The notes under the pieces were generated by a model. The model was not told the DNA's origin. It ran no database searches and saw only the letters and a program-made list of their open reading frames with translations. Both the position numbers and the translations under genes were made by a program. Shown in pieces: positions 1 to 18,980 of a stretch of DNA of 31,477 nucleotides. The stretch is from Ignisphaera sp. (GTDB taxonomy: Archaea > Thermoproteota > Thermoprotei_A > Sulfolobales > Ignisphaeraceae): positions 1 through 31,477 of the forward strand of contig JAWBDT010000018.1 in assembly GCA_038821645.1 (NCBI GenBank). Reading direction: 5' to 3'. Numbering within the stretch: position 1 is the first letter of the stretch; every line of letters begins with the position of its first letter.

Positions 1-1
1 G

Positions 2-580
2 AGCTTAGATGAAGGCGATATTATGGATAAGATGTGGTGGGAAGCAATACTAGGGACTATGTTGATGACTAGATATGCAGATCTTTTGATTATGCATTCA
101 ATAGAAGGTTGGGTACTATTACCATTAGTTATATGGAGATTCCAACTGTATACAGATCCAAGAAAGCCTGTAGCTGTTCCATCAGGTGTTAGAGAAGTAG
201 GTAAGCCTAATGGATTCTCTCCTGTTATCGTTACATCAAATTACGCTCTTACCTACAGTATTGTTCTGAGTGATCTAGAAAAGGCTAAGATTAATGCTTG
301 GCTTGTTGTTATAGATACTGAAGGGCTTGCCGTTGATGTAGCTGTAGCAGGTAGAAAATTCATAGGTGAAAAAGTAGCTGAAGTGATAAGAGCCTCTAAT
401 CTCGATAAAAAGATTAAACACAAGATACTAATTATACCTGGTAAAGCTGCTAGAGTTTCTGGAGACATAGAAGATTCAACTGGATGGCGAGTAATTGTAG
501 GACCCATGGATTCTAGTGAGCTAGGCAAGTTTATTGAAAAAGAATTCACAGAAAGCAAAATACAGGAGCTTTCAACTTAA
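2..580 (+). CDS. acsC: Corrinoid iron-sulfur protein large (gamma) subunit AcsC/CdhE, C-terminal part (5'-truncated by window edge)
   Basis: Frame is open to the window edge. YTDPRKPVAV..G...P...SPVIVTSNYALTY, VVIDTEGL and LIIPG....SGDIED.TGWRVIVGP match the AcsC C-terminal B12-binding domain. Followed by RACo and CooC. Confidence 0.9.
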   Translation, partial: SLDEGDIMDKMWWEAILGTMLMTRYADLLIMHSIEGWVLLPLVIWRFQLYTDPRKPVAVPSGVREVGKPNGFSPVIVTSNYALTYSIVLSDLEKAKINAWLVVIDTEGLAVDVAVAGRKFIGEKVAEVIRASNLDKKIKHKILIIPGKAARVSGDIEDSTGWRVIVGPMDSSELGKFIEKEFTESKIQELST

Positions 581-652
581 TAAAATGTTTACAAATGTTT
601 ATAATGATTTATCTATCTCATGGTTGTTCTTCTAAAAATTGGGTGAAGCTCG

Positions 653-2500
653 ATAACTAAAGAGAATTATGCTAAAGTAATATTTCCACAATACAATGTA
701 GCTGCAACTGTAACTAAAGGAATAACGATATTAGAGATAGCCCAAAAATTGGGTATAGGCATCAGAAGTGTTTGCGGTGGTAAAGGATTTTGCGGTAAAT
801 GCAAGGTTCTTATAAAGGGAAAAGTAGATCACAGGCTAACCGACAAAACATTGATTTCTGAAGAAGAACAGGCCAAGGGATATGTCTTAGCTTGTTTAGC
901 TAAAATCATAGAAGATGTAGAAGTATTTGTACCTCCTGAAAGTCAGTTTAGAAAAGCTAAGCTTCTTTCATCTGTATTGTTACCTAAACTAATCGTGAAC
1001 CCCATCATATCTAGATCAATCATATCTGAATATACAGATATCGTTAAACTTGCAACATTTTACAAATTTGACGAAGAACTAAGAAAGAAAGCAGAATCAT
1101 TACTAGACATCAATGGCAAGGCTATTGTCATCATCAACCCCCTACATAATGTTGTTATAGATGTTAAAACAGAAGACCATATTTACGGTATAGCTGTAGA
1201 TATAGGTACAACAAAAGTTGTTGTAGCGCTAATAGATATAGCTCAGGGAAAGGTTATCGACGTAGAATCAGAATTCAATAAACAGATTATGTATGGAGAA
1301 GACCTTGTATCACGAATATCGTATGCTATTGATAAGGAGGGTTTGAGAGAACTCAAAACAACCGTTATAGAGACTATAAACGGACTAATAGATAGTTTAT
1401 GCAAGAAACACAAGATAGATAATAGAGAACTCTACCACATTTCAGTAGCAGGAAATACTGTCATGACCTACCTTTTTGTGGGTTTAGATCCATACCCATT
1501 AATACGCTCTTTTAAAACCCCAGTTAAAATAGACCCTAAACCATATATATTAAAGGCCTCAGATCTCGAGCTGAATACCAATAGAGATGCTATTGTTTAT
1601 GTTCTACCATGTAGCGGTAGATTCTTAGGAGGAGATGTTATCGGTGATATTGTTACTGCAGGTCTTCATCTAATTGATGAACCAGCACTTTTAATTGATA
1701 TTGGGACTAATACTGAGGTTGTTATAGGGTGTAAGAACTGGTTCTTAGCAACAACAGCACCAGCTGGACCTGCATTTGAAGGATGGGGATTGAAATGCGG
1801 TGTTAGAGCAATTCAGGGAGCTATCGAGAGTGTACAAATAGATCCACAAACATTAAAAGCAAGATACTCAGTCATAGGAAACGTGAAACCTATAGGTATA
1901 TGTGGTTCAGGATATATAGATCTAGTTGCACAACTTTTCATACATGGCGTTATAGATCGACAAGGTAAGTTCTATAAAGATATAGAATCACCGTATATCA
2001 GAAAGGGTAGTGATGGTTATGAATACATTGTGGTTAGTGGCGATGAATCTGCTACCGGAAGAGATATAGTCATTACGGAGAAAGATATATACAATATTAT
2101 AGATGCAAAATCCTCTGTATGCGCAGCTATAGCAATATTGTTGAAAAGAATGTACCTAGATGTATATAAGATTACCCGTGTCTTCATATGTGGCGCTTTT
2201 GGAAGATACCTCAATATTGATAGTGCTGTAGCCATAGGCATGATACCTGAATTTCCTAAAGCAGAAGTAATCTATATAGGTAATGGATCTCTAGGTGGAG
2301 CAATAATGACAACTGTATCTAGAGAGTACATTAATTATGTTGAAAAAGTAGCAAAAAATATTGCTACGATAGAGCTCATGCTTGATCCCAACTTTATGGA
2401 AGAATATGAATCAGGATTCATACTTCCTGGAAAACAAGAACTTTTTCCAACATGGTGGAAAAAGAGTTTAGGAATAAAACCTTGGAAACTAGAGAAATAA
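653..2500 (+). CDS. Reductive activator of corrinoid proteins (RACo/AcsV-like, ASKHA ATPase with N-terminal [2Fe-2S] domain)
   Basis: CGGKGFCGKC...LAC ferredoxin motif; ASKHA motifs AVDIGTT and LIDIGTNTE; GPAFEG; GICGSG. The ORF track starts at TTG 749, but the frame and the ferredoxin fold (KVIFP...GITILEIA) continue upstream to ATA 653, 6 nt after GGGTGA. Start codon uncertain. Confidence 0.88.
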   Translation: MTKENYAKVIFPQYNVAATVTKGITILEIAQKLGIGIRSVCGGKGFCGKCKVLIKGKVDHRLTDKTLISEEEQAKGYVLACLAKIIEDVEVFVPPESQFRKAKLLSSVLLPKLIVNPIISRSIISEYTDIVKLATFYKFDEELRKKAESLLDINGKAIVIINPLHNVVIDVKTEDHIYGIAVDIGTTKVVVALIDIAQGKVIDVESEFNKQIMYGEDLVSRISYAIDKEGLRELKTTVIETINGLIDSLCKKHKIDNRELYHISVAGNTVMTYLFVGLDPYPLIRSFKTPVKIDPKPYILKASDLELNTNRDAIVYVLPCSGRFLGGDVIGDIVTAGLHLIDEPALLIDIGTNTEVVIGCKNWFLATTAPAGPAFEGWGLKCGVRAIQGAIESVQIDPQTLKARYSVIGNVKPIGICGSGYIDLVAQLFIHGVIDRQGKFYKDIESPYIRKGSDGYEYIVVSGDESATGRDIVITEKDIYNIIDAKSSVCAAIAILLKRMYLDVYKITRVFICGAFGRYLNIDSAVAIGMIPEFPKAEVIYIGNGSLGGAIMTTVSREYINYVEKVAKNIATIELMLDPNFMEEYESGFILPGKQELFPTWWKKSLGIKPWKLEK

Positions 2501-2542
2501 TAAACTAAAACATTAGTATAGTGATTAACTAAGTGTGATACG

Positions 2543-3319
2543 ATGCGTAGACCCTTCATAGCATCAATCTCAGGTAAAGGAGGAACTGGAAAAACTACTC
2601 TAACAGCACTTCTACTTAAGGTGTTAATAGATAACGCTACAGACGACACAATACTCGTAGTAGATGCGGATCCTGCTACAAACTTGCCCGAGGTTCTTGG
2701 CGTTAATATCAACAAAACTATTGGTGATATTGTTGAAGAATTTAGAAAGAAAAGCAATAACATATCTGATTTGGGTTTCGAAAAATCATCTCTACTCCAA
2801 TATTGGATACTTAGAGATTCACTAACTGAAACACCCCACTTTGACTTAATAGCTATGGGTAGAGGTGAAGGAGAAGGCTGTTATTGTTATGTTAATTCAA
2901 TTCTTACAAGAATCCTTGTAGAGTTAATGAAGAATTATAGTGTTGTCTTAATGGATATGGAAGCTGGTTTAGAACATCTAAGTAGAAGAGTTGATAGATA
3001 TGTTAATACCCTCATAGTTGTTGTAGATCCTTCCATTATGAGTATAAAAACTGCTGAAAGAATTATAACGATAGCAAAAGAGGTAAACATAAAGCCTGAA
3101 AAACTCTTTCTTGTTGGTAATAGAATGTCCGAAAATACGGTCCGTGAGGTAGCAAGGTATGCGTCTCAGTTGGGTTATGAATATGCAGGAACAATACCTA
3201 ATGATGATGTCATATACACTTATAACCTAGAGGGGAAATCTCTATTGACGCTTCCTCAGAATACCAAAGCTATCCAGGCCACAAGAATTATCGCTAAAAA
3301 CATAGGTCTCATAGATTAA
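2543..3319 (+). CDS. cooC: CooC/AcsF-type nickel-insertion ATPase (CODH/ACS maturation)
   Basis: Deviant Walker A SGKGGTGKTT, VDADPATNL, metal-binding GEGCYC, DMEAGLEHLSR. Confidence 0.9.
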   Translation: MRRPFIASISGKGGTGKTTLTALLLKVLIDNATDDTILVVDADPATNLPEVLGVNINKTIGDIVEEFRKKSNNISDLGFEKSSLLQYWILRDSLTETPHFDLIAMGRGEGEGCYCYVNSILTRILVELMKNYSVVLMDMEAGLEHLSRRVDRYVNTLIVVVDPSIMSIKTAERIITIAKEVNIKPEKLFLVGNRMSENTVREVARYASQLGYEYAGTIPNDDVIYTYNLEGKSLLTLPQNTKAIQATRIIAKNIGLID

Positions 3320-3393
3320 ACCTCTCATCAAAATTCTAGTAATAATATTTTAATATTCTAATGCAGTATTAATATACATTAAACAAAACATTA

Positions 3394-3407
3394 GTAAAAT
3401 TTATATA
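3394..3407 (+). promoter_or_regulatory. Probable BRE/TATA promoter giving a leaderless transcript for the MetF-like gene
   Basis: Purine-rich GTAAAA followed by TTTATATA (3400-3407), ending 21 nt before ATG 3429; no SD motif before that ATG. Confidence 0.5.
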
Positions 3408-3428
3408 GCAATTCTTTTGAATATGTAA

Positions 3429-4202
3429 ATGGCGGTAAAGTTGAAAATATTGCACGAGTTTGTTCCTACGAGAAAATTTTTACAAATGGCTGAAGAGACT
3501 AAGGACCTAGTTGATGGATGGAATATAACTGATAGTGCTGCTGGTATACCTGCACCTAGTGGAACAGCTGTTGGATGTGTGTTAAAGGTTAAATACCCAG
3601 AGAAAATAGTGATACCTATCTTCATATTAAATTACAAAGGTCCTGTTGAAATTGGTGCTTTAGCTCTTGCTGCTGATGCTGTTGGACTCGACGGTCTTGT
3701 GCTTACATTTGGTGACGAACCCAAATATGGAGAACCTTTAGCAGCTAGATACTGGAAAAATTCAGAAGACTGTCGAGATTTCTTGAAAAAAGAAATAAAG
3801 CTGAAACGTGTTAAGCTTGGTTGCCTGTTGTCTCCAAAACCTTGGAGAGATAGATATGGAGTAAAGCAATTTGGTGTTGATGACATGATTAATAGAGTTA
3901 AAACTGGATGGGATTTTGCATTCTTCATGAGATTAGACGACACTACGCTACCATTGCTTGAACAAATTTCATTTGAGATAAAGAAACTCAATGTACCTTT
4001 ATACACATACTTCTTGATAAAGACTCCACGTAATGCTGAAATTCTTGCACGAATAGGGTGGACCCCCACAACATCTCTTGAAAATGCTTTAACATTTGCT
4101 GAAAAACTTGAAGGACTAGTCGAGGGCTTAATAGCTACATGTGCAGGTGATTATCAAGGTGATTTAGAGCTTCTAAAACAATTAAGTAGGCTCAGAAAGT
4201 GA
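3429..4202 (+). CDS. Divergent methylenetetrahydrofolate reductase (MetF)-like TIM-barrel protein
   Basis: LHEFVP (cf. MetF SFEFFPP, catalytic Glu), DGWNITD, and A.A.GLDGLVLTFGDEP (cf. GI.NVL.LRGDPP, catalytic Asp). The usual HLTCR motif is replaced by IFILN. Confidence 0.65.
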   Translation: MAVKLKILHEFVPTRKFLQMAEETKDLVDGWNITDSAAGIPAPSGTAVGCVLKVKYPEKIVIPIFILNYKGPVEIGALALAADAVGLDGLVLTFGDEPKYGEPLAARYWKNSEDCRDFLKKEIKLKRVKLGCLLSPKPWRDRYGVKQFGVDDMINRVKTGWDFAFFMRLDDTTLPLLEQISFEIKKLNVPLYTYFLIKTPRNAEILARIGWTPTTSLENALTFAEKLEGLVEGLIATCAGDYQGDLELLKQLSRLRK

Positions 4203-4259
4203 AAAATAGGTTAAATGAAGTAAACTAGATTATGTGTTCAATGCTCTAGGTCTAATACA

Positions 4260-5333
4260 TTACTCTAAAAGTTTTTTCCAATCAACCTCTTTATCTATTG
4301 TCGATACTATATCATTCTCTTTAGCTTTTAGTGAATCAGCTGTAACTATCGACTGAACTTCACGCAATTTTTCAATTGTTGTATAAGTATCATAAGGAAC
4401 AAGCAGTAAAGGTACATTAACCTCCTTGGCCTTAATCAACACTCCGACATCAGGATACAAATTACCTGTGAGTATTACAACACTAGGTCTTGTCTCTAAA
4501 GCTGCTATAATTAGATCTGTTCTATCTCCTCCAGTAATTATTGCTGCATTTATAGCCCTTCTGAACCATCTTAAAGCAGCTGTTGGGGCCATGGCTCCAA
4601 CGATAATGTCTTCAATGATATTGTTAAGTCTATTCTCATTTTCAAGCACCTCAGCATTCAATGCTTCAGCTACATCCCTAACCGTTGGTGCTAAGAGTCT
4701 AGGTTTCTCCGATATAACTCCGTATACCTTCATACCTAGATCCTCAACTAGTGGTACCAATAAATCGTTCACCCTTTCTACATAGTATACAGGAACATTA
4801 TTGAATATAACACCATCTAAAGCTACACCATATCGTTCAAAGAAACATCTGTAAAGATATACCCTGTCTACAACTTCATCAACAATATCTCTATCCTTAG
4901 CTACAGCCACATATACGGGTTTTGCATTCAGCACTTTGGCTATTTCTGGCAAAGGTAATCCTATACTAGACATGGTCTCCGTTAAAGGATAACTTTCTAT
5001 AACTACAACATCCTTTCCTTCACTTACCTTATTGAAACAATCTATAATCAGTCTCTTTAAGTTATCTATATCCTTTTTTAATTCTATGATACCACGCGAT
5101 ATTGTTAGAGGACTCATGCATTCTACTGGATCTTTAAGATCGAGAGCTTCTTTAATTGCTAATACATCTGGATCAACGAATTTCATTGATGGAAGTCTAT
5201 ATCGAGCTCTGGCAATAGGCTTAAAGTATCCAACCTTTAATCCTTCTTGAGAAAACTTCTTTAAAAGTCCATATATAAGTACAGTTTTACCTCTTTCGCC
5301 CAAGATTAGTATAGATTTAACCGTATCCATCAC
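4260..5333 (-). CDS. Phosphotransacetylase N-terminal-like protein (BioD-like P-loop + DRTGG domain, no catalytic Pta domain)
   Basis: GKT..., KVGYFKPI, DVVVIE, GVIFN, IIVGAM, AIITGGDRTDL, LVPYDTYTT. Start abuts the stop codon of the ACD gene. Confidence 0.85.
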   Translation of the reverse strand: MMDTVKSILILGERGKTVLIYGLLKKFSQEGLKVGYFKPIARARYRLPSMKFVDPDVLAIKEALDLKDPVECMSPLTISRGIIELKKDIDNLKRLIIDCFNKVSEGKDVVVIESYPLTETMSSIGLPLPEIAKVLNAKPVYVAVAKDRDIVDEVVDRVYLYRCFFERYGVALDGVIFNNVPVYYVERVNDLLVPLVEDLGMKVYGVISEKPRLLAPTVRDVAEALNAEVLENENRLNNIIEDIIVGAMAPTAALRWFRRAINAAIITGGDRTDLIIAALETRPSVVILTGNLYPDVGVLIKAKEVNVPLLLVPYDTYTTIEKLREVQSIVTADSLKAKENDIVSTIDKEVDWKKLLE

Positions 5334-7445
5334 CTATTCTATAACCATCTTAACATCTATAGCCATACTTCCAGCTCCTTCTTCATATACGAATAGGGGA
5401 TTAATATCCATTTCTACTATATCTGGTACATCTGTAACAAGCTTGCTTACTCTCAACAATATATTTATCACAGATGCTATATCTGCGGTCGGTTCTCCTC
5501 TAAATCCTTTTAGAAGATTGTAAGCTTTGGTTTCCATAACCATCTCTTTAGCTTCGTAAAGAGATAGTGGTGCTAATCTAAACGATACATCTTTGAATAA
5601 TTCTGCATATATTCCGCCAAGACCAAACATAACTATGTGACCAAATACTGGATCTTTTGTAGAACCTATTATGACCTCTCTGCCTTTTGGAACCATCTTC
5701 TGGACAACAACACCGTATATTGATGATTGTGGTGAAAATTTACGTACATTGGATATAATGGATCTGAATGCTTCTCTAACATCATTATCGGATCTTACAT
5801 TCATTATAACACCACCAACATCAGATTTATGGATTATATCTGGGGAAGCTATCTTGAGTACCACGGGATATCCCATATTTTTGGCTATCTCTACAGCTTC
5901 ATCTTCAGAAGTAGCTAACATTGTTGGAGCAACAGGTATACCATAGCACTTAACTACTTCTTTTGCTTCTGACTCTAATAACACTTTTCTATTCTGATTT
6001 TTCACACTTTCTATTATCGAAAGTGCCTTCCTTCTATCTACGTCATATATGTTCACATGTTCTAATGTCTTTAATACATATTCTCTTAACTCTCTATACA
6101 TACTCAGACCATAAATTGCTATAACGCCTTTTTCAGGCATATCGTAGACAGGTATGTTGTTCTCGATAAGCATCTTGGATGCTTTTTCAACTTTATCACC
6201 ACCAATAAATACTGCTACTATTGGTTTAGAAGGATATAGCTTACTTAGTTCTATAATCACCTTAGCTGTTTCCTCAGGTTCTGTAACTACTTGTGGTGTT
6301 AATATCGTTATCAAACCATCTACATTATGATCCTTAAGAAGAGCTTCTATAGCAAGTCTATACCTATCAGCTTGCGCATCACCGAGCACATCAACAGGAT
6401 TGTATACAGACGCCATAGGTGGTAAACTGTTACGTAGATAGTCTATAGTTTGTTTGGATAAAGAAGCCAACTTTAATCCTTTCGACGTTAGAATATCCGA
6501 TGTAACTACCCCACCACCACCAGCATTTGTCACAATACCGATTCTATCTCCGTGAGGTATGGGTTGGGTACTGAATGCTATAGCCATATCGAATAATTCT
6601 GAAACTGTTGTAACATGTATTATGCCTGCCTTCTTTAACGCTGCTTTTAATGCTGTTATCCCTCCAGCCATAGATCCTGTATGACTTAAAGCGGCCTTTG
6701 CGCCAGCTTCTGTTGTACCTCCTTTGAGGAGAATTATTGGTTTCTTTCTAGATACACTAGCACCTATGCTTATGAATCTCCTACCATCAGTTATGGATTC
6801 AAGATACAGCAGAATGACCTTGGTCTCAGGGTCTTCACCTAAGTACTCTATGAAATCAGATTCGTTTAGATCTGCTTTATTGCCTAAGCTAACTATTTTT
6901 GAAAATCCTATACCGGTTTTCAAAGACCAATCAAGTATTGCTGAAAGTAGTGCACCACTTTGCGATATAAATGCTATTCCTCCTCTTCTTAAAGGAGTAG
7001 GTCCAAATGAAGCATTAATGGGGGTATAGAGATCCATAATGCCTAGACAGTTAGGGCCGACGATTCTTACACCATACTTCTTAGCTATTTCTACTAACTT
7101 TTTCTCTCTTTCAATACCCTCACCTCCTACCTCTTTAAATCCAGCTGTAATAACAACAACATGCTTAATACCCTTCTTACCGCATTCCTCTAGAGTACTT
7201 AATACTACTTGAGCTGGTACTACTATTACTGCTAAATCTATATCACCTGGAATTTCTGATACAGATTTGTATACATCAAGACCAAGTATTTTATCTGCTT
7301 TTGGATTTACTGGATATATTTCTCCCTTATATCCGCTCTCAATTATATTTTTCAGTATAGCATGTCCAACTTTTCCAGGCTCTCTCGAGGCACCAATTAT
7401 TGCTACTGATTTAGGCTTAAATAAATACTCTAAACTCTTGTCCAT
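5334..7445 (-). CDS. ADP-forming acetyl-CoA synthetase (ACD), fused alpha+beta subunits
   Basis: CoA-binding VAIIGAS..PGKVG, GPNCLG, SQSGA, phospho-His SHTGSMAG, NPVDVLGDA, and ATP-grasp beta part YPVVLKIASPDIIHKSDVGGV and EMDINPL. No GNAT domain, so not Pat/YfiQ. Confidence 0.9.
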   Translation of the reverse strand: MDKSLEYLFKPKSVAIIGASREPGKVGHAILKNIIESGYKGEIYPVNPKADKILGLDVYKSVSEIPGDIDLAVIVVPAQVVLSTLEECGKKGIKHVVVITAGFKEVGGEGIEREKKLVEIAKKYGVRIVGPNCLGIMDLYTPINASFGPTPLRRGGIAFISQSGALLSAILDWSLKTGIGFSKIVSLGNKADLNESDFIEYLGEDPETKVILLYLESITDGRRFISIGASVSRKKPIILLKGGTTEAGAKAALSHTGSMAGGITALKAALKKAGIIHVTTVSELFDMAIAFSTQPIPHGDRIGIVTNAGGGGVVTSDILTSKGLKLASLSKQTIDYLRNSLPPMASVYNPVDVLGDAQADRYRLAIEALLKDHNVDGLITILTPQVVTEPEETAKVIIELSKLYPSKPIVAVFIGGDKVEKASKMLIENNIPVYDMPEKGVIAIYGLSMYRELREYVLKTLEHVNIYDVDRRKALSIIESVKNQNRKVLLESEAKEVVKCYGIPVAPTMLATSEDEAVEIAKNMGYPVVLKIASPDIIHKSDVGGVIMNVRSDNDVREAFRSIISNVRKFSPQSSIYGVVVQKMVPKGREVIIGSTKDPVFGHIVMFGLGGIYAELFKDVSFRLAPLSLYEAKEMVMETKAYNLLKGFRGEPTADIASVINILLRVSKLVTDVPDIVEMDINPLFVYEEGAGSMAIDVKMVIE

Positions 7446-7569
7446 ATTGCTTAAACCCTTAACGTCATTTCTCGAAAAAAGTTTAAAAATATTTGTAGTT
7501 AATGTGCATGATTGTGAATAAGAATTTAATATACAAACGTGATACTATATATCGGTTAGGTGAAAATGA

Positions 7570-8214
7570 TTGAAACTAGTTTTCATAGGTCCTCCAGGTA
7601 TAGGTAAAGGTACATACGCTAAGATGTTGAGACAGAAATACGGAATTCCACATATATCTACTGGAGATATCTTCCGAGAAGAGATAGCCAAAGGAACCGC
7701 TCTAGGTATAAAGATTAAACAATATGTTGAAAAAGGATTACTAGTTCCCGATGAAATTGTGATAGAAGTTATTAAAAAAGTTCTTCAAGGTCCTGAATGT
7801 AGAAATGGATTTATACTTGATGGATTTCCTAGAACAATTAAGCAAGCAGAAGAACTAGATAAAATAGTATCAATAGATGCTGTATTTCTATTTGAAGCAC
7901 CAGTAGAAATTATTGTAGAAAGGGTATCGGGAAGAATTATATGTCCTAATTGTGGTACTATCTATAACATTAGATGGAGGCCTCCTAAAGTTCCAGGAAT
8001 ATGTGATGTTTGTGGACATCAGTTAATAAAGAGAAAGGATGATGAACCAGAAGTGGTTAGAACTAGGTACCAAATATATAAGCAAACTTTTGAACCTGTA
8101 ATAGATTACTATCGTCGTAAAAACTTGTTGATAGAAATTGATGCTTCACGTGATGCAGAAATTGTTGTGAGGGATATTGAGGAATTGCTTAAAAAGATGA
8201 ATATAATAAAGTAG
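7570..8214 (+). CDS. adk: Adenylate kinase, bacterial-type long form with Zn-LID
   Basis: GPPGIGKGT, HISTGDIFR, GFILDGFPRT, LID CPNC...CDVC, RKDD. GGTGA lies 6 nt before the TTG start. Confidence 0.93.
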   Translation: MKLVFIGPPGIGKGTYAKMLRQKYGIPHISTGDIFREEIAKGTALGIKIKQYVEKGLLVPDEIVIEVIKKVLQGPECRNGFILDGFPRTIKQAEELDKIVSIDAVFLFEAPVEIIVERVSGRIICPNCGTIYNIRWRPPKVPGICDVCGHQLIKRKDDEPEVVRTRYQIYKQTFEPVIDYYRRKNLLIEIDASRDAEIVVRDIEELLKKMNIIK

Positions 8215-8232
8215 TTTTATTCACTAAAACAA

Positions 8233-8742
8233 TTATCTAGGTTTATAGAATGGATGTTCAACTTTATCTTTTTTATCAAGTATTTCGTCTATTTTTGGCT
8301 CTCCCAACATTGCTCTCTTGATAGCTATCTTTGTTGCTTCATAATTATATCTATACACTTTATCCTTATCTTTAGCTGCAGGATGTATAAAAACACCACA
8401 AATTATAACGACATCATCTACTATATCTTTAGGTATAATTCCTTCAGCTACACTATCTGCCACAGCTTTAGCTACAGCATATTGTGCTGGACCAAATATT
8501 AGTTCTGCTTGAAACATATTTCTTATAGTTACTTTAGGAACTATCAATGTAACTGGCTTCACAAGTAGATTTGGTGTCAAAACTGCAAAGAGTTTCGTAT
8601 GTCCATATGTTTGATGAGCTAAGCCAAAAGATAATCCTATACCTGCAGGACCATCTTTATCACCAATTATCAAATCTATGTGTGCTACCTCATTACCTTC
8701 ACCTACTAATGCTTCACCGAACCTTATACCTATTTTACCCAT
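8233..8742 (-). CDS. fae: Formaldehyde-activating enzyme (H4MPT hydro-lyase), stand-alone
   Basis: [70 protein letters not shown]. No Hps domain fused. Start taken at the ATG behind GGGTG. Confidence 0.93.
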
Positions 8743-8884
8743 CCCGTACACCCACTACACTATAGGTTATACACTCAGTATATATTTCTTTGCGTCATTG
8801 CTTTAAAGTTGGTGCAGCAGATGGTTTTATATTTTGATTAACAAGAGGTATAGAATGTATATCCACTCATCATGGGTATAAGGA

Positions 8885-9295
8885 ATGGGAAGCGAAATTG
8901 ATAGAGATACTGTAGTAAAACGCTCAGTAGAATTAATGCGTAGTGGAGCTACACTATTAGCTGAAGTATGTCCTCTATGTAGGTCACCTCTATTTAGGCT
9001 TCGTAGCGGTGAAATTGTGTGCCCTATACATGGAAGAGTTATGGTAGTTAAAACAGAAGAAGAGGTGGCAGAAGCTGGTGTGATAGGTGTTTTAACTGAA
9101 TTAGAGAAAAAAATATCAAATCTATTAATTAATCGTGTTAAGAATATTAGTGAAGATGATGCTTCATATGATGATGCTCGTGATATTGTGATGTGGCTTG
9201 AAGCAATTGAAAGAATTGAAAGAATTAAACAGATGCTTAAACAAGTGCCTGAACAACGTAAGAGAAAAGCCGAGGAAAAACATGAAGAACAATAA
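8885..9295 (+). CDS. UPF0148 / Sjogren's syndrome-scleroderma autoantigen 1 family Zn-ribbon protein
   Basis: ELMRSGATLLAEVCPLCRSPLF...GEIVCPIHG, followed by a helical C-terminus. Confidence 0.85.
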   Translation: MGSEIDRDTVVKRSVELMRSGATLLAEVCPLCRSPLFRLRSGEIVCPIHGRVMVVKTEEEVAEAGVIGVLTELEKKISNLLINRVKNISEDDASYDDARDIVMWLEAIERIERIKQMLKQVPEQRKRKAEEKHEEQ

Positions 9296-9455
9296 TATAC
9301 ATTACTGTGTATTAGACAATAGACCATGAAATAAGATGCAAGAGTTCACACTAAATAATAGTGTGTAGATTTTTATGATTGCATTAACATCAACTAATAA
9401 AATACGTGAAGCATATTTATATTCTAGTAGTTAGATTTGACTTCAAAGGATTATA

Positions 9456-11171
9456 GTGATTAGTATGAAGAACGGTATCTTGGTTGGACTCTTTATAGGA
9501 CTTTTGTTGGGATTCATTGATAGTTATACTTATGCTATTTCGGGCTATACAACATCAGAAATATCTTTAATTATTGTACCTTTTTTAGTGATGACTATAT
9601 TCAAGGTCGTTAAGGTTAGGTACAATAACTATGATCTAATCACAGCTATAGCTCTAGCTTTCGGTATCTGTATGGCAACTACACTATCATCCGGGATGTA
9701 TATAACATTTGGTTTTCTAAAACATATATCGAGTAGATTGAGGCCTTACGGAATGGATATAGATGTACCCGAATATATATATAGTGGCTCTTTTCCAGAT
9801 CTCACAGCATTACCTACATATGTAGCTTTAGCTCTTATATCATTTGGTGGAGCATTGATAGCTTTTGCGTTCAGGAATCATTTCATAGAGAAAGAGAAAC
9901 TCAAATACCCAATCGGATTGGCTTCAGCGATTCTGATTAAGCTTTTGCAGAAGAGTTTGATATCTGTTAAGATTGTTGTTACATTTATTCTCCTAGGTTT
10001 TTCATTACAGTTTATAGCTATGAGAATGAACACAATGTTAGATCTTACACCTATAGTCTCGGCAGTAGCTCCTGGCGCTGTTTTAGCGTTATCGTTCTGG
10101 CCTATACTTATTGGTCTTCTAGTCTTAATCCCTCTATATCCATTAAAGAGTATTTCTATAGGCTCTGTTTCTACATATCTACTTTTAATTCCTTTATCTA
10201 TAGCTCTATTCGGCATAAAAACGGTACCTGCTATAAGCTATGAAGAAGCTCTCTATAACTATTCACCAATATCTATAGGATTGAACATAGGTGTAGTGCT
10301 AATAGTCACATTATTTTACCTCATTACCTATAGTACAACTCTCTACATGAGCCTGACTATGATCCTGAAAATGAGGATGGAAAGAACAGCATTTATCTTA
10401 GGTATTATGATGATCTTGATGATGATGTATCTCGTTTTAGTAATTGGTGGTACCTCTACTATTCTTATACATATAATTCCTCTGATCTTCATCCATGTTA
10501 TTTTAACCTTAGCTAATCTTCGGGTTGTAGGTGAAACAGGTACTGGATCACAAGCGCTTTTACCTCTCGTAACTTTCTACATGTATTTCTTTGGTTTTAG
10601 AGACGTTAGGGTATATGCTACTATAGATCCATATACAGGTATACCTATGCCTCAGGTAATAGGCGGTGCCTCAATGAATCTTCTAAGACTTGCTAGGCTC
10701 TTTAAGTATAGTGTTGTAAAGTCTTTGCTGTATTTTGGTATAGGTATGCTTGTGGGAAGTTTTGCAACCTATATCTATGGTAATATACTGACACATGTAT
10801 ATGGATTTGAGTCAGAGTATATGCCTTTGACGAGATGGGTGCCTTGTGTAATATGGATGGCATCTATATATAGCGGAAAACTAGGGTCAACTTCCGTATC
10901 TGTAATTGTTCTAGGTATTTTTATAGGTTTATTGATTATTATTGGGGGGCTTAGGAGGGTTCTTTCACCTTTTGGATTTATTGTGGGTATGACTATGCCT
11001 CCAGATATCGGAGTACTTTCGCTAATTGTTTATGCAATAAAAATATTGATGGTGAGGCTAGGTGTAGAGGTTCATGAAAAGATGATAATATCTGCTATAT
11101 TATTCCTATTAGGATGTGGAATAGCTGTAATTTTTAACACTATTCTGTATATAATAGTTGGTGTAGGTTAA
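9456..11171 (+). CDS. OPT/YSL-superfamily-like polytopic membrane transporter
   Basis: Many hydrophobic segments; FIEKEKLKYPIGLASA resembles the OPT L.FP.G.A.A motif; RVVGETG. Confidence 0.6.
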   Translation: MISMKNGILVGLFIGLLLGFIDSYTYAISGYTTSEISLIIVPFLVMTIFKVVKVRYNNYDLITAIALAFGICMATTLSSGMYITFGFLKHISSRLRPYGMDIDVPEYIYSGSFPDLTALPTYVALALISFGGALIAFAFRNHFIEKEKLKYPIGLASAILIKLLQKSLISVKIVVTFILLGFSLQFIAMRMNTMLDLTPIVSAVAPGAVLALSFWPILIGLLVLIPLYPLKSISIGSVSTYLLLIPLSIALFGIKTVPAISYEEALYNYSPISIGLNIGVVLIVTLFYLITYSTTLYMSLTMILKMRMERTAFILGIMMILMMMYLVLVIGGTSTILIHIIPLIFIHVILTLANLRVVGETGTGSQALLPLVTFYMYFFGFRDVRVYATIDPYTGIPMPQVIGGASMNLLRLARLFKYSVVKSLLYFGIGMLVGSFATYIYGNILTHVYGFESEYMPLTRWVPCVIWMASIYSGKLGSTSVSVIVLGIFIGLLIIIGGLRRVLSPFGFIVGMTMPPDIGVLSLIVYAIKILMVRLGVEVHEKMIISAILFLLGCGIAVIFNTILYIIVGVG

Positions 11172-11175
11172 AGAT

Positions 11176-12732
11176 ATGGACCAAAGTCTATTGGTACTCT
11201 TACCTCCTTTGATACTTTTTGCTGTATCTCTATTTGTTATTGCAAAGAAGTATCGAGGTTATGTTGAAGAAGATCACTTAGGAGAGATAAGACTTGTTTC
11301 TCCAGCGTTAAAGCTTGTTAAAAATATTGTTAAAAAATCTTTTATCTCAGTTGAAATGTTGTTGATATTCTTGACGTTATATGTTTCAGCATTCAATTCA
11401 TCGTATGCTACAACCTTCATTTTTTCTTCATATTCACTAGATATAAAGACCGACTTTAATCTATTAGCTGTATCTGATACAATAGTACCTACAGATATTC
11501 TTGATAAAATTGGACATAAGTACGTAACTGTGATTCAAGTTTTTACACCACTACAAATTGATGAAAAAAATTTTTACGTACTTCTAATTAGATGCAGCAT
11601 CGATTACTATAGCAATTCAAATAATAGGCTCTTTACAATACTTTTAGATTATTGCGCAAATGAAGATGCAGTATTAATTGACAGAAATTCTGGTATATCA
11701 GAGAAATCTGTTGCTAAGCTTCTGGGTAACAATATCACTATTACTAAGGTTGACATGACTCCTTTGATTAATGTAGAGCTTATACCAGGTGTATACGTAG
11801 TTCACAGCATAGGGACTATAGGTGGTTTGAGCCTCAAGATTGAGGATCCAGAAAAACTTATAATAATACCTTTTACAAGGATTACTATTGAGAACATATG
11901 CTCAAGATATTGTAGTTCAAAAACCGTTATTATAGGTTTTGATGATTACAACGTCTATAGAGACATTTTTGATGAGCTTGTCGCTAGATTCAACTATGTA
12001 GTTCTTAAAGAACCTACTCAGCCTGGGGTTAGGGTTTACAGTAGATCTTATGTTCCAACAGTTAAGTCAATTATAAGCCTAGTTATATCATTTGTGATAT
12101 CAGTAATAATGGTATATACCGTTAGTGGAGGTTTGGTAGAAAAATTAATTGATATGGGTCACACTCTTTTTATTGAGGGAATTACAAAAGAGCTCTTCAT
12201 AGCCATAGCAACTCTAGGTATATTGTTGACTGTAATGTCTATGTTTTTACCTATATTAATACTATCTTCTTTAGGAATGCTGAAGACCTTGGCTATAGTC
12301 ACTTACCTTATCTCATCTATAACATCCACATATATTATAACATCACAACTCTCCAGCAGGATAGGAAAATACAAACCACAAAACATTTCTAGCACCTTTA
12401 GCTATATTGTTGATAGATATGTACCAAATAATGTTCTAGTAGAATGTTTTAAATCTTTCTTGATTAACGATGATTTCTTTAATATAGATGAAATAGAAAG
12501 TGTAGTTGAAGAAAGCTACTATATGATCAGGATAGAGTTGATATATAGGAGGGCGCTAACTACAGTATCATCAGTAGAGATATATGTTGAGAGAATAGAT
12601 CATGGAGTAAAGTATACAGTTATTGTCGATGTATGGAGCCTTGAGGATCTCACTAACAGAACCTTATCGTCAATTCAACGTTTGGCACTCTCTAAAGTTG
12701 TAGGTGGTGTTATTAGTTGTATAGAGAGTTAG
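11176..12732 (+). CDS. Membrane protein, possibly FtsX/MacB-like ABC permease
   Basis: N-terminal TM segments, ~220 aa soluble domain, three further TMs and a C-terminal soluble domain; same operon as a LolD-type ATPase. Confidence 0.45.
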   Translation: MDQSLLVLLPPLILFAVSLFVIAKKYRGYVEEDHLGEIRLVSPALKLVKNIVKKSFISVEMLLIFLTLYVSAFNSSYATTFIFSSYSLDIKTDFNLLAVSDTIVPTDILDKIGHKYVTVIQVFTPLQIDEKNFYVLLIRCSIDYYSNSNNRLFTILLDYCANEDAVLIDRNSGISEKSVAKLLGNNITITKVDMTPLINVELIPGVYVVHSIGTIGGLSLKIEDPEKLIIIPFTRITIENICSRYCSSKTVIIGFDDYNVYRDIFDELVARFNYVVLKEPTQPGVRVYSRSYVPTVKSIISLVISFVISVIMVYTVSGGLVEKLIDMGHTLFIEGITKELFIAIATLGILLTVMSMFLPILILSSLGMLKTLAIVTYLISSITSTYIITSQLSSRIGKYKPQNISSTFSYIVDRYVPNNVLVECFKSFLINDDFFNIDEIESVVEESYYMIRIELIYRRALTTVSSVEIYVERIDHGVKYTVIVDVWSLEDLTNRTLSSIQRLALSKVVGGVISCIES

Positions 12733-13124
12733 CTTTTAAATCAATAAAACTCTCATTAATTGGACGAGGAAGTATTTATACTATATTCTTTAGTATCGCA
12801 TCATTAATGTATCTTTTAGTTTATAGTACTCTTGAGATATTTACATCAATGGTTATATTATCTATAATAATGATTTTGGCCTCTTATCTAGCTGATAAAA
12901 AGAGCGTTAAACAGTTTGTAACTACATTAATTCTATCAGGTGCAAAGAGCATTGTTGTAATCTTCTGTTTGTGTGTTTATCTATTTGTGCGTATAATCAT
13001 TATCTTGATTTTGTATTCTCTATTTATAACCAGTTTTACTCTTACATATGCAATTATGGTTTTGGTACATCTAGTAAATATGATCTTAGTAGCCGAAGTT
13101 GTATGCAAGGTGATTAGAAGATGA
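12717..13124 (+). CDS. Small ~4-TM membrane protein (putative permease component)
   Basis: Very hydrophobic; overlaps both neighbouring genes; GGTGGTG upstream of the TTG start. Confidence 0.55.
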   Translation: MYRELAFKSIKLSLIGRGSIYTIFFSIASLMYLLVYSTLEIFTSMVILSIIMILASYLADKKSVKQFVTTLILSGAKSIVVIFCLCVYLFVRIIIILILYSLFITSFTLTYAIMVLVHLVNMILVAEVVCKVIRR

Positions 13125-13804
13125 AACGTATCGTTGTTATAGCAAAAAATGTATGGAAATACTATACAATTGAAGGTAGAAATATTGCTGTATTGAAGAA
13201 CATTAATATCTATGTTTATAGAGGAGAAATAGTTTGTATACATGGTCCTAGCGGTGCCGGTAAAACTACGCTTCTCAAAATTCTTGCTGGTCTAGAAAGG
13301 CCTGATCAAGGAGAGGTAATAGTGGATGGCTATAATTTATCCATGTTAGATGAAGATGGTTTAGCAGCACTTAGATCTAATGTAATTGGCTATATTCCTC
13401 AAGACTATGGTCTTATAGATGAGTTTAATGTGTACGAAAATATGGAGATCCCATTGATGATAGCAGGTTTGAGTGAATACGAGAGACGATCCAGAATATC
13501 GAGCTTATTAGAGTACATGGGTTTAAAGGGAAAAGAGAACATTAAGGTTAAACTTCTTAGTGGTGGAGAGAAACAAAGAGTGGCAATAGCTAGAGCTCTA
13601 ACAATTGCTCCCTCTCTTCTTTTGGCTGATGAACCTACAGCTAATCTTGATTGGGATAATGCTAAGAGAGTTCTTGAATTAATGAATAGAATAAGCAAAG
13701 ATTTTGAAACATCTATAATAATAGTATCACATGATCCAAGGGTGCTTGATTTTGCTACACGAAAGTACATATTATATGATGGTGTTCTAAGTGAACTTAA
13801 ATAA
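13121..13804 (+). CDS. ABC transporter ATP-binding protein, LolD/MacB family
   Basis: GPSGAGKTT, Q-loop IPQ, LSGGEKQRVAIARAL, LLLADEPTANLD, VSHD. Confidence 0.93.
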   Translation: MKRIVVIAKNVWKYYTIEGRNIAVLKNINIYVYRGEIVCIHGPSGAGKTTLLKILAGLERPDQGEVIVDGYNLSMLDEDGLAALRSNVIGYIPQDYGLIDEFNVYENMEIPLMIAGLSEYERRSRISSLLEYMGLKGKENIKVKLLSGGEKQRVAIARALTIAPSLLLADEPTANLDWDNAKRVLELMNRISKDFETSIIIVSHDPRVLDFATRKYILYDGVLSELK

Positions 13805-18044: not shown

Positions 18045-18980
18045 TTGATTCAAAACATGTTCATAGGAAAAATAACTATTGTTCCCTGCAGTAGAGAAGT
18101 TTATACCATATCAACTCCTGAAAAAAGATCCAGTACAGCATCAATAGGATTAGCAAGTATTGATCCAAATCTTTGGAGAATACAAAAAGATTTTTCAGGT
18201 AAGGCTGAAATGATGTGCAAAGACGGTAACGTTATTGCTAATAATGATTTCTATATCCCTATAAAGCTAATGGATACTTATGCATATCATGAAATCATAT
18301 ATGGCCCTAAACCATGGGGTATGCCTCCATTTCATTCCAAACCTATAGAACCTATACTCGTTCCTGAAACAATACATACATACATTAACTTAAAGAAAGT
18401 TATTATGTACACGAAATTTATTATAGATAAACTAGATCAAGCAACAAACATAGCTTACGACATCTGGCTAACTAGAGAGCCGAGATACATTGGTGGACCT
18501 AAACCGGAGGATATTGAACTAATGATATGGATCTATAGAGCATCAAACTCCGAATGGCTTCCTCCACCAGCCGGAAACAAGATATACGAAGTTACGATAT
18601 CTACATTAATAGATGGTAAAGTAAAAAACGCTATATGGGATATATGGTATCATCCAGGTGTTTCCTGGGGTGGCTGGAGCTATCTAGCTTATGTTTTAAC
18701 TGAACCTTCAACAGATGTAGCTGTTGATTTAACAGAGATACTTAAACAAACAAAAAGATTATTTAGAGAAATAGACCCGATTAAACACAAAATCATTGGT
18801 CAAACGATTGAAAATATGTATGTTAATGATATTGAGGTTGGAACAGAAGTATTTGCATACAATCCAGGTTATGCTGGTATTAAATGGATTCTTAAAGAAT
18901 TTCACATAGTAGCCTATAGACCCGATATAGAAAGCACATATGTATTTGAACATTTAAAGAATGAAATAATACTCAGATAA
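18045..18980 (+). CDS. Glycoside hydrolase family 12 (endo-beta-glucanase-like)
   Basis: Y.EIIYG.KPWG, NIAYDIWL, DIELMIWIY (nucleophile Glu), P.G, W.Y..Y, IEVGTEV (acid/base Glu), as in thermophilic GH12 enzymes. Confidence 0.75.
   Translation: MIQNMFIGKITIVPCSREVYTISTPEKRSSTASIGLASIDPNLWRIQKDFSGKAEMMCKDGNVIANNDFYIPIKLMDTYAYHEIIYGPKPWGMPPFHSKPIEPILVPETIHTYINLKKVIMYTKFIIDKLDQATNIAYDIWLTREPRYIGGPKPEDIELMIWIYRASNSEWLPPPAGNKIYEVTISTLIDGKVKNAIWDIWYHPGVSWGGWSYLAYVLTEPSTDVAVDLTEILKQTKRLFREIDPIKHKIIGQTIENMYVNDIEVGTEVFAYNPGYAGIKWILKEFHIVAYRPDIESTYVFEHLKNEIILR

Follow-up and report, generated by a model that had tools for sequence, protein, structure and literature searches.

A short MetF-like protein encoded at the end of an archaeal cdh operon is a candidate methylene-tetrahydromethanopterin reductase of archaea without Mer

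Which enzyme reduces methylene-tetrahydromethanopterin (methylene-H4MPT) in archaea that encode the H4MPT-dependent Wood-Ljungdahl pathway but not the reductase Mer? The question is raised by contig JAWBDT010000018.1 of an Ignisphaera sp. assembly, which was analysed over its whole length of 31,477 nucleotides and is referred to below as the window or C18. The assembly (G000; G001 and so on denote other genomes, and C6, C9, C12 and C18 are contigs of G000) comprises 1,571,862 bp (1.57 Mb) in 31 contigs, with an estimated completeness of 97.8% and contamination of 0.24%. The G+C content is 31-36%. The window opens with genes for the corrinoid iron-sulfur protein (CFeSP), its reductive activase (RACo) and a CooC-like ATPase, followed by a gene for a 257-aa MetF-like protein and by convergent genes for an ADP-forming acyl-CoA synthetase (ACD) and a DRTGG-domain protein; adenylate kinase (adk) and formaldehyde-activating enzyme (Fae) genes lie beyond. 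An original prediction, made from the letters of this DNA, described the set as a hybrid of methanogen-type and acetogen-type parts that converts formaldehyde to acetate. All eight genes that it named were recovered, at the coordinates it gave, by calling of open reading frames (ORFs) and by Pfam and NCBIfam searches, and its attribution to a crenarchaeal-type genome holds, Ignisphaera being the source of the closest named homologues among the matches listed for the 257-aa protein. We arrived at a different reading and consider it probable that bases 2-4202 represent the 3′ end of an archaeal cdhABCDE operon cut by an assembly gap, and that the MetF-like protein is a methylene-H4MPT reductase acting in Mer's place.

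The CFeSP gene at the left edge of the window, cdhE, is truncated (PF03599, E 5.8e-58, profile positions 230-386 of 387; NF003195, positions 273-447 of 450). The other subunit genes of the archaeal acetyl-CoA decarbonylase/synthase (ACDS) complex occupy the last 6.5 kb of C12, in the order cooC-cdhA-cdhB-cdhC-cdhD, with cdhD running off the contig end. CdhA is a 792-aa protein of the archaeal type with a ferredoxin insert (TIGR00314, 1133 bits versus a cut-off of 781), CdhB corresponds to the epsilon subunit (PF02552), and CdhC (TIGR00316, 604 bits versus 356) is the sole such match in the genome, located at C12:53599-54063, 2 kb short of the contig end. Being cut by contig ends, cdhD (model positions 76-347 of 442) and cdhE reach 233 and 238 bits, below the respective full-length cut-offs of 253 and 306; apart from these two, the genome contains no PF03599 match. 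All five ACDS subunits, with an alpha subunit of the archaeal type, are thus represented. In G004, a genome of the same genus with proteins 85-100% identical to those studied here (95-100% from cdhA to fae), a single contig carries, in the same order, cdhA-B-C-D-E, RACo, cooC, the 257-aa gene, the DRTGG gene, ACD, adk and fae, with a full-length cdhE (508 aa) directly following cdhD (441 aa). Therefore, C12 and C18 would be neighbours in G000 too, separated by a gap of about 1.1 kb that would contain the 5′ part of cdhE. Furthermore, DNA contigs from other hot-spring runs continue upstream of window base 1. The original prediction had noted that acetyl-CoA synthase, carbon monoxide dehydrogenase and the small CFeSP subunit are not encoded in the window; a whole-genome check placed cdhA, cdhB, cdhC and cdhD directly upstream on C12, and in G004 they are contiguous with the rest.

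The first two of the three accessory genes that follow cdhE have counterparts elsewhere in the genome. RACo scores above the cut-offs for RACo_C_ter (6e-88), Raco_middle (2.8e-51) and Fer2 (1e-7, profile positions 28-75 of 77), whereas with the NCBIfam AcsV model it reaches 450 bits versus a cut-off of 800 and would accordingly be classified as a member of the AcsV family outside that particular orthologue group. Its reading frame is open upstream of the TTG at 749, and the translation of this stretch (window 581-760), in which ATG, GTG and TTG do not occur in frame, resembles the initial strand of a 2Fe-2S ferredoxin; one contig of an RNA library starts at 619. The gene probably begins upstream of the TTG, and the start codon may be unusual. 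A second RACo-like gene, 36% identical, is found at C9:48656-50416. The CooC-like protein matches CbiA and related general P-loop families only. CooC1-type nickel ATPases are distinguished by a deviant Walker A motif and a CxC metal-binding motif, both of which are present in the window protein, as GKGGTGKT and as CYC at residue 113, the latter at the position where the C12 copy, encoded upstream of cdhA and 28% identical, has CLC.

The methyl branch of the pathway is likewise encoded on C12. The genes for a hydrogenase of the Mbh/Ech type, a GltD-like oxidoreductase and an Mpt_N-type dehydrogenase are followed by those for Ftr, FwdD-B, FwdA, FwdC, Mch and FdhD, then by a corrinoid protein with a UroD-type methyltransferase and finally by MfnB, MfnE-like, MfnF/TIGR03123, MptN-like and MfnD-like genes; MtrH is encoded on C6. 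The dehydrogenase (304 aa, C12:29591-30502, just upstream of Ftr) contains the Mpt_N domain of MtdA/B-type methylene-H4MPT dehydrogenases (E 8e-21), a methylotroph-like type found in 14 of the 41 genomes searched. The corrinoid protein and the UroD-type methyltransferase (C12:37760-39723, between Mch/FdhD and the cofactor genes), considered together with the RACo-like gene of C9, suggest a separate corrinoid methyl-transfer system. Searches of the genome for Mer (TIGR03555), canonical MetF, that is, methylenetetrahydrofolate reductase (MTHFR; PF02219, E <= 1), and F420-dependent Mtd (PF01993) all returned nothing. Given the presence of Fwd, Ftr, Mch, Cdh and the cofactor genes, the genome encodes a complete archaeal H4MPT Wood-Ljungdahl pathway, save for a recognised methylene-H4MPT reductase. 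The assignment of the window genes to a route from C1 units to acetyl-CoA is thereby borne out, by cdh as well as by the methyl branch, but the supposed hybrid gives way to the standard complete archaeal pathway, with Fwd, Ftr, Mch, cdhABCDE and methanofuran/H4MPT biosynthesis, an outcome that the original prediction had itself named as speaking against it. Among the methyl-branch genes that the original prediction named, mch, ftr, fwd and those for H4MPT biosynthesis are found, and F420-dependent Mtd and Mer are not; its suggestion that a MetF-like protein sits where Mer would be fits a genome in which neither of these two nor canonical MetF was detected.

The relationship of the 257-aa protein to MetF is distant. 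The protein has no match among Pfam or NCBIfam models even at E 10, falling short of both PF02219 and TIGR03555, and a single-sequence search of the PDB produced one irrelevant match, ribosomal protein L1 (E 0.84). Its relatives are nevertheless numerous. Among 2853 candidates scored in a large protein collection, 624 were retained at E <= 0.001; none of the 120 listed has a precomputed Pfam domain, and some are named methylenetetrahydrofolate reductase at source. The listed relatives include an orthologue from Ignisphaera sp. 4213-co, 85% identical, followed by proteins of Bathyarchaeia at 62-65%. Against 1.84 billion cluster representatives, searched all against all, 73 matches reached E <= 0.001; they are about 225-260 aa long apart from fragments and one protein of 681 aa. 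In an alignment of 42 members, G95 and G131 are invariant, and E10, G39, P41, D96, P98, S135, R156, D162 and Y194 are retained in 90% or more of the members. When the profile of these 42 relatives was compared with the PDB (E <= 10), 14 of 16 matches were MTHFRs, the best being that of Thermus thermophilus (E 6e-4), with 'GDkP' aligned on 'RGDPP'. Comparison by hhalign with a Pfam-positive archaeal MetF (from G104) yielded a probability of 95.8% and an E value of 7.5e-9 over 174 columns, although pairwise BLASTP with the same protein is insignificant (E 0.14), and aligned Glu10 (in 'ILHEFVP') and Asp96 (in 'FGDEP') with 'gELEP' and 'sGD', respectively. In E. coli MetF, the catalytic Glu follows strand 1 and the Asp belongs to a 'GD' motif; both positions, as Glu10 and Asp96, are kept in at least 90% of the 42 relatives. 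Because the profile matches in the PDB and the hhalign result point to MTHFR, the 257-aa protein is best regarded as a remote MetF homologue, one that departs from canonical MetF in lacking a PF02219 match and in being linked to it by profiles rather than by BLASTP.

Structure prediction is consistent with this relationship. AlphaFold predicts a TIM barrel with high confidence (pLDDT 94.4, pTM 0.91), a fold shared with MetF, and the highest Z scores in structure comparison are those of MTHFRs (19.5). However, luciferase-like F420 enzymes trail by no more than about 1-2 Z units and unrelated TIM barrels also figure among the Foldseek matches, so that structure fails to separate MTHFRs from the luciferase-like enzymes, and the fold alone does not fix the chemistry of the protein. 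Mer shows no sequence match to it, and at 257 aa, as opposed to the 325 positions of the Mer model, the protein is shorter by about 70 residues. The FAD-independent mycobacterial MTHFR (PDB 8bgr and 7wmx) differs as well: it is a bacterial enzyme acting on folate, is 10-12% identical and gives no profile match. The gene for the 257-aa protein, like those for ACD, the DRTGG protein and Fae, is present in a single copy in the genome.

The distribution of the family was compared with that of Mer in a set of near relatives, 41 genomes consisting of G000, 16 others of the genus and 24 from more distant lineages. Sixteen of the 41 have both CdhC and Mch. Of these, 11 have no Mer and carry a gene closely orthologous to that of the 257-aa protein (71-100% identity), four (G002, G009, G012 and G014) have Mer above the cut-off and no match to the 257-aa gene, and one (G019, 81% complete) has neither. 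Within the genus (n = 17), the 257-aa gene is present in 12 genomes and Mer in four, with no genome containing both and a single one, 75% complete, containing neither. We extended the comparison to a sample of 401 genomes of the phylum, counting profile matches to the family at E <= 1e-5 and strong ones at E <= 1e-71; 52 of the 401 have Mer above the cut-off and 105 have a match to Mch. The Mch-positive genomes divide into 49 with Mer and no strong family match (42 with no match and seven with weak ones, E 1e-11 to 1e-19), 33 with a strong family match and no Mer, and 22 with neither (13 with weak matches, nine with none), the one remaining genome being considered below. Canonical PF02219 MetF is encoded in all five that were tested of the 13 weak-match genomes, and the weak matches therefore probably correspond to ordinary MetF. 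In Mch-positive genomes, the MetF-like family and Mer are nearly mutually exclusive.

The two states have alternated repeatedly on a tree of Mch built from 39 genomes, of which the relatives set contributed 14 and the phylum sample 25, the rows being hand-picked to cover families with both states and G011 (Mch split) and G019 (fragment) being left out. At least nine changes between the Mer and MetF-like labels were counted, of which seven are forced by branches with SH-aLRT >= 95, and 21-24 of 500 label shuffles gave a number as low as that observed. The four genomes of the genus that have Mer group together as the sister clade of G000/G004. With a gene tree standing in for the species tree and with hand-picked rows, the number of switches is a rough lower bound rather than a test. 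We lean, if only slightly, towards the broader proposition that the 257-aa family is the long-missing methylene-H4MPT reductase of those Mer-less archaea, such as Ignisphaera and many Bathyarchaeia, that have the H4MPT Wood-Ljungdahl pathway, and that it and Mer would have replaced one another at least seven times.

The genomic neighbourhoods point in the same direction. For 11 of the 12 relatives with a close orthologue, up to 20 kb around it was fetched and the window proteins were mapped onto the locus. Both cdhE and RACo are found there in five of the 11 (G004, G006, G008, G013 and G038), and in G005 a cooC gene is located nearby at the contig end. The 257-aa gene lies inside or beside cdh in the same five genomes and, judging from coordinates, in G016 as well; in G000, G004, G006 and G008 it closes the cdh array. 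A gene of the MtdA/B-like type directly precedes it in G005, G013, G038 and, again by coordinates, G016, whereas MptN and MfnB are encoded near it in G001, G010 and G011. In G015, where no CdhC or Mch was found, it adjoins a gene of the MtrH family (E 2e-78), and a distant family member in G033 is located beside a corrinoid protein and a RACo-like gene. All of these contexts link the family with C1 metabolism based on H4MPT or corrinoids. ACD is adjacent to the 257-aa gene in seven of the 11 loci (G004, G005, G006, G007, G008, G013 and G038), five of which also contain the DRTGG gene with ACD. Of the linkages that the original prediction supposed, that of ACD with the cluster is thus conserved in relatives, whereas that of fae is seen in G004 only, one locus of 11. 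Nor do RACo and CooC qualify as acetogen-type parts, given that they accompany cdhE in five of the 11 loci, all archaeal, and the same applies to the MetF-like gene, whose family is represented in 258 of the 401 phylum genomes.

On the reading that we favour, CO2 would be converted to methylene-H4MPT by Fwd, Ftr, Mch and the NAD(P)-type MtdA/B-like enzyme, all of whose genes are present, and the MetF-like protein would reduce methylene-H4MPT to methyl-H4MPT. CdhDE would take over the methyl group, with RACo keeping the corrinoid reduced and the CooC proteins loading nickel, as expected from their families, and CdhABC would form acetyl-CoA, from which ACD, possibly with the Pta-N-like DRTGG protein as a partner, would generate acetate and ATP. 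In a fermentative organism, such a pathway might serve as an electron sink or for mixotrophy. In relatives that have no cdh, the reductase together with Fae and MtrH may supply methyl groups for biosynthesis.

Several observations weigh against this reading. The assignment of the MetF-like protein to the Wood-Ljungdahl pathway depends on synteny and on there being no alternative enzyme, and most of the 258 phylum genomes matched by the family profile have no Mch; G007 and G015 retain the 257-aa gene and Fae although no CdhC or Mch was found in them. Accordingly, the basic role of the family may be anabolic. The subfamily to which the 257-aa protein belongs has no His in the 'HxRLxD' motif, a residue that the rest of the family shares with the 'HLT' of MetF. 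Among the 105 Mch-positive genomes, one, G297, has both Mer and a strong family match; this genome (91% complete, 3% contaminated, 130 contigs) is the sole Mch-positive one with both and could represent either a mixed bin or a true intermediate. The cross-tabulation was copied by hand from three outputs into a script, related genomes are not independent of each other, and the hand-picked rows and the use of a gene tree as a species tree bear on the Mch tree in the same sense. Finally, a search for cofH (TIGR03551, E <= 1e-10) was negative in all 17 genomes of the genus, including the four with Mer. We had considered that the exchange of Mer for the MetF-like protein follows the loss of F420, an idea that receives no support because the cofH result is the same in the Mer-carrying genomes. 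In those four (G002, G009, G012 and G014), Mer scores above its cut-off and would need a supply of F420, although no cofH was found at E <= 1e-10.

The breadth of the family and its retention in G007 and G015 would be expected if the protein were confined to housekeeping reduction of methylene-pterins, as in methionine synthesis, with another enzyme serving the Wood-Ljungdahl pathway and the position within cdh being incidental; the location beside MtrH in G015 and beside a corrinoid protein and a RACo-like activase in G033 could be understood in the same way. We regard this as unlikely, considering that the gene closes the cdh array in four genomes and follows an MtdA/B-like gene in four, that co-occurrence with Mer is limited to just one of the 83 Mch-positive genomes having either, and that searches for Mer and PF02219 turned up no other candidate in G000. 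A different function altogether, that of a non-reductase pterin-binding TIM barrel such as a methyl-H4MPT:corrinoid methyltransferase or a luciferase-like F420 or flavin enzyme, is the least credible option and deserves hardly any weight: the sequence profiles point to MTHFR only, the Glu and Asp positions of MetF are conserved, and a methyltransferase would not account for the exclusivity with Mer. Moreover, methyl transfer from methyl-H4MPT is carried out in the archaeal complex by its own gamma-delta subunits.

The formaldehyde-to-acetate route of the original prediction, a dedicated salvage module in which Fae, the MetF-like reductase, CFeSP with acetyl-CoA synthase, and ACD would yield acetate and ATP, has the merit that all of its enzymes are encoded, within 9 kb in both G000 and G004, and that Fae would feed methylene-H4MPT straight to the proposed reductase; fae is also covered by RNA-library contigs. 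We nonetheless find it very unlikely. In the other 10 relatives with both genes, fae is separated from the 257-aa gene by 121 kb or placed on a different contig. Fifteen of the 16 genus relatives have Fae, with or without CdhC and Mch, including G003 (75% complete), G007 and G015, where neither of the latter was found; conversely, it was not found in the pathway-positive G038 and G019, nor in any of the 24 more distant genomes searched. The full CO2-reducing branch (Fwd, Ftr and Mch) is present, and the genome contains a stand-alone Hps-like gene (TIGR03128, 157 bits, below the cut-off of 200), the best models for which are all hexulose-phosphate synthases. In methanogens, formaldehyde released in pentose synthesis is captured by Fae. 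The Hps-like gene thus implies an ordinary role for fae, the removal of formaldehyde, and suggests that this formaldehyde derives from the cell's own pentose synthesis; fae is a neighbour of the cluster in this species only and its link to it is incidental. It is also conceivable, if on balance rather improbable, that the pathway runs in the oxidative direction, from acetyl-CoA to CO2 and, via the neighbouring membrane-bound hydrogenase, H2, instead of serving as a reductive acetate-forming sink. All of the steps are reversible in principle, and the Mbh/Ech-type hydrogenase and GltD-like oxidoreductase are encoded just upstream of the methyl-branch genes; the conserved neighbour, however, is ACD, which is ATP-yielding and acetate-forming, and cultured Ignisphaera is fermentative and hydrolytic according to the title of the I. 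cupida description.

How much of this is new? The pathway itself is not. Berghuis et al. 2019 (PMC6421429) stated that several metagenome-assembled genomes (MAGs) of Ignisphaera "contained all WLP genes", and the passages concerned list Cdh, Fwd, Ftr, Fae, HdrAB and MtrH; these MAGs represent the same genus-level lineage, with the same gene set as here. The central surprise of the original prediction, a Wood-Ljungdahl pathway in a lineage not usually credited with one, was therefore already in print. A whole-word search of the main text of that article found no Mer, MetF, Mtd or acetate, the sole match to 'mer' being '5-mer'. The cluster is an ordinary archaeal cdh operon, sharing with the ACDS operon of methanogens and Archaeoglobus the five subunits, their order, a CooC gene and the Fwd-Ftr-Mch branch, and differing in the presence of RACo, a second CooC and the MetF-like gene after cdhE. 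In contrast to the methyl branch of these organisms, an Mpt_N-type dehydrogenase is encoded in place of F420-dependent Mtd, and Mer was not found in the genome. The idea that an MTHFR-type enzyme acts on H4MPT-bound C1 units where Mer is missing has a precedent in anaerobic methanotrophic archaea (ANME): in passages of Chadwick et al. 2022 (PMC9012536), MetF/MetV is proposed to replace Mer in ANME-1, and the ANME MetF genes are described as all adjoining MetV and the ANME-1 MetF as grouping with proteins of Bathyarchaeota, Verstraetearchaeota and Asgard archaea. The gene studied here is flanked instead by cooC and the convergent DRTGG gene, MetV not having been searched for.

What appears to be new is the 257-aa family as a testable and well-supported candidate for the methylene-H4MPT reductase of Mer-less archaea. 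The full-text literature, subscription journals and supplements being outside its scope, yielded no description of a short Pfam-negative family as a substitute for Mer. The candidate would fill a known gap: a passage of Qi et al. (PMC8407382) reports hot-spring Bathyarchaeia in which the H4MPT pathway is otherwise complete, without mer, and supposes "an alternative and unknown complex", and the listed proteins of Bathyarchaeia are those at 62-65% identity. If the assignment is correct, a missing mer would no longer signify an incomplete pathway in MAGs of Thermoproteota, family libraries would gain a model, and the electron donor of the reductase step, decisive for the energetics of archaeal acetogenesis, would become measurable. 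Together with the MtdA/B-type dehydrogenase, the enzyme would mark a variant of the archaeal pathway in which the F420-dependent enzymes Mtd and Mer are both dispensed with. The proposal can be tested at the bench, since the orthologue 85% identical is source-named from the cultured strain Ignisphaera sp. 4213-co, which an entry of the validation list (PMC12453562) gives as type strain for I. cupida, a hydrolytic hyperthermophile in culture.

The features at the start of the window are listed in Table 1.

Table 1. Genes encoded in the first part of the window
Feature	Position	Strand
cdhE/acsC, 3′ part, 192 aa (ACDS gamma subunit, CFeSP large subunit)	2..580	+
RACo-type reductive activase of corrinoid protein (2Fe-2S, middle and ASKHA ATPase domains)	749..2500	+
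CooC/AcsF-like nickel-insertion P-loop ATPase, second copy in the genome	2543..3319	+
257-aa MetF-like TIM-barrel protein; final gene of the co-directional cdh array	3429..4202	+
Stand-alone AAA_26 + DRTGG protein, resembling the N-terminal part of class II Pta	4260..5333	-
Fused alpha-beta ADP-forming acyl-CoA synthetase (ACD)	5334..7445	-
Adenylate kinase (adk), divergent from ACD	7570..8214	+
Stand-alone formaldehyde-activating enzyme (Fae)	8233..8751	-

ACD contains five Pfam domains, among them the CoA-binding, ligase-CoA and ATP-grasp domains, and exceeds the cut-off of the alpha-subunit model (TIGR02717, 617.5 bits versus 567); its best full-length model is 4-hydroxybutyrate-CoA ligase, at 718 bits versus a cut-off of 1300. 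With one tblastn match in the genome, ACD is predicted to be the general acetate-forming enzyme of the cell, also serving fermentation, rather than a pathway-specific paralogue. The start of the DRTGG protein (DRTGG, 1e-26; AAA_26, 9e-14) abuts the stop of ACD. This protein aligns with positions 12-368 only of the 708 of the Pta model NF004167, and the catalytic PTA_PTB domain was not found in it with Pfam or NCBIfam; by domain content it would therefore not qualify as a phosphotransacetylase, although stand-alone AAA_26 + DRTGG proteins, which are common in Ignisphaera, Bathyarchaeia and Asgard archaea, are source-named 'phosphotransacetylase family protein'. The same two domains make up the N-terminal region of class II Pta and, as described in part of PMC4481167, DVU3031 of Desulfovibrio vulgaris, likewise encoded beside acetate-forming enzymes, but there the neighbour is pta-ack, whereas here ACD is the partner and PTA_PTB is lacking. 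Any role of the DRTGG protein in acetate formation is putative. Fae (PF08714, 1.5e-71; TIGR03126, 252 bits versus a cut-off of 118) is of the stand-alone form, 172 aa in length and without fusion to Hps.

Contigs of one metatranscriptome library (X20), 95-99% alike to the window, cover 26 of the 30 bins of bases 1-8800, fae included, leaving 2353-3234 and 5587-5880 without cover. Such contigs give neither transcript ends nor levels, and DNA may be present in such libraries; the cover is thus a weak hint of expression, from which we draw no conclusion as to operon structure.

The adk gene (ADK, E 9e-50; NF001380, 272.8 bits versus a cut-off of 251) is located beside ACD or the MetF-like gene in six of the 11 relatives' loci and is a common neighbour of no special meaning. 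Within it, at window 7798-7827, the contigs of all three runs break, with a 30-base overlap and a common alternative upstream sequence, which looks like strain variation at an assembly branch point; despite this break, the join from adk to fae is identical in G004. Further downstream, at 8827-13804, three ORFs of 166, 571 and 518 aa without Pfam or NCBIfam matches are 85-88% conserved in G004 and, being followed by an ORF of 135 aa and an ABC-transporter ATPase, possibly form part of an uncharacterised membrane transport unit. A 93-aa protein encoded at 14651-14932 matches prokaryotic RING/PHD-type zinc fingers, and the 311-aa product of the gene at 18045-18980 contains a GH12 glycoside hydrolase domain, in keeping with a hydrolytic mode of life.

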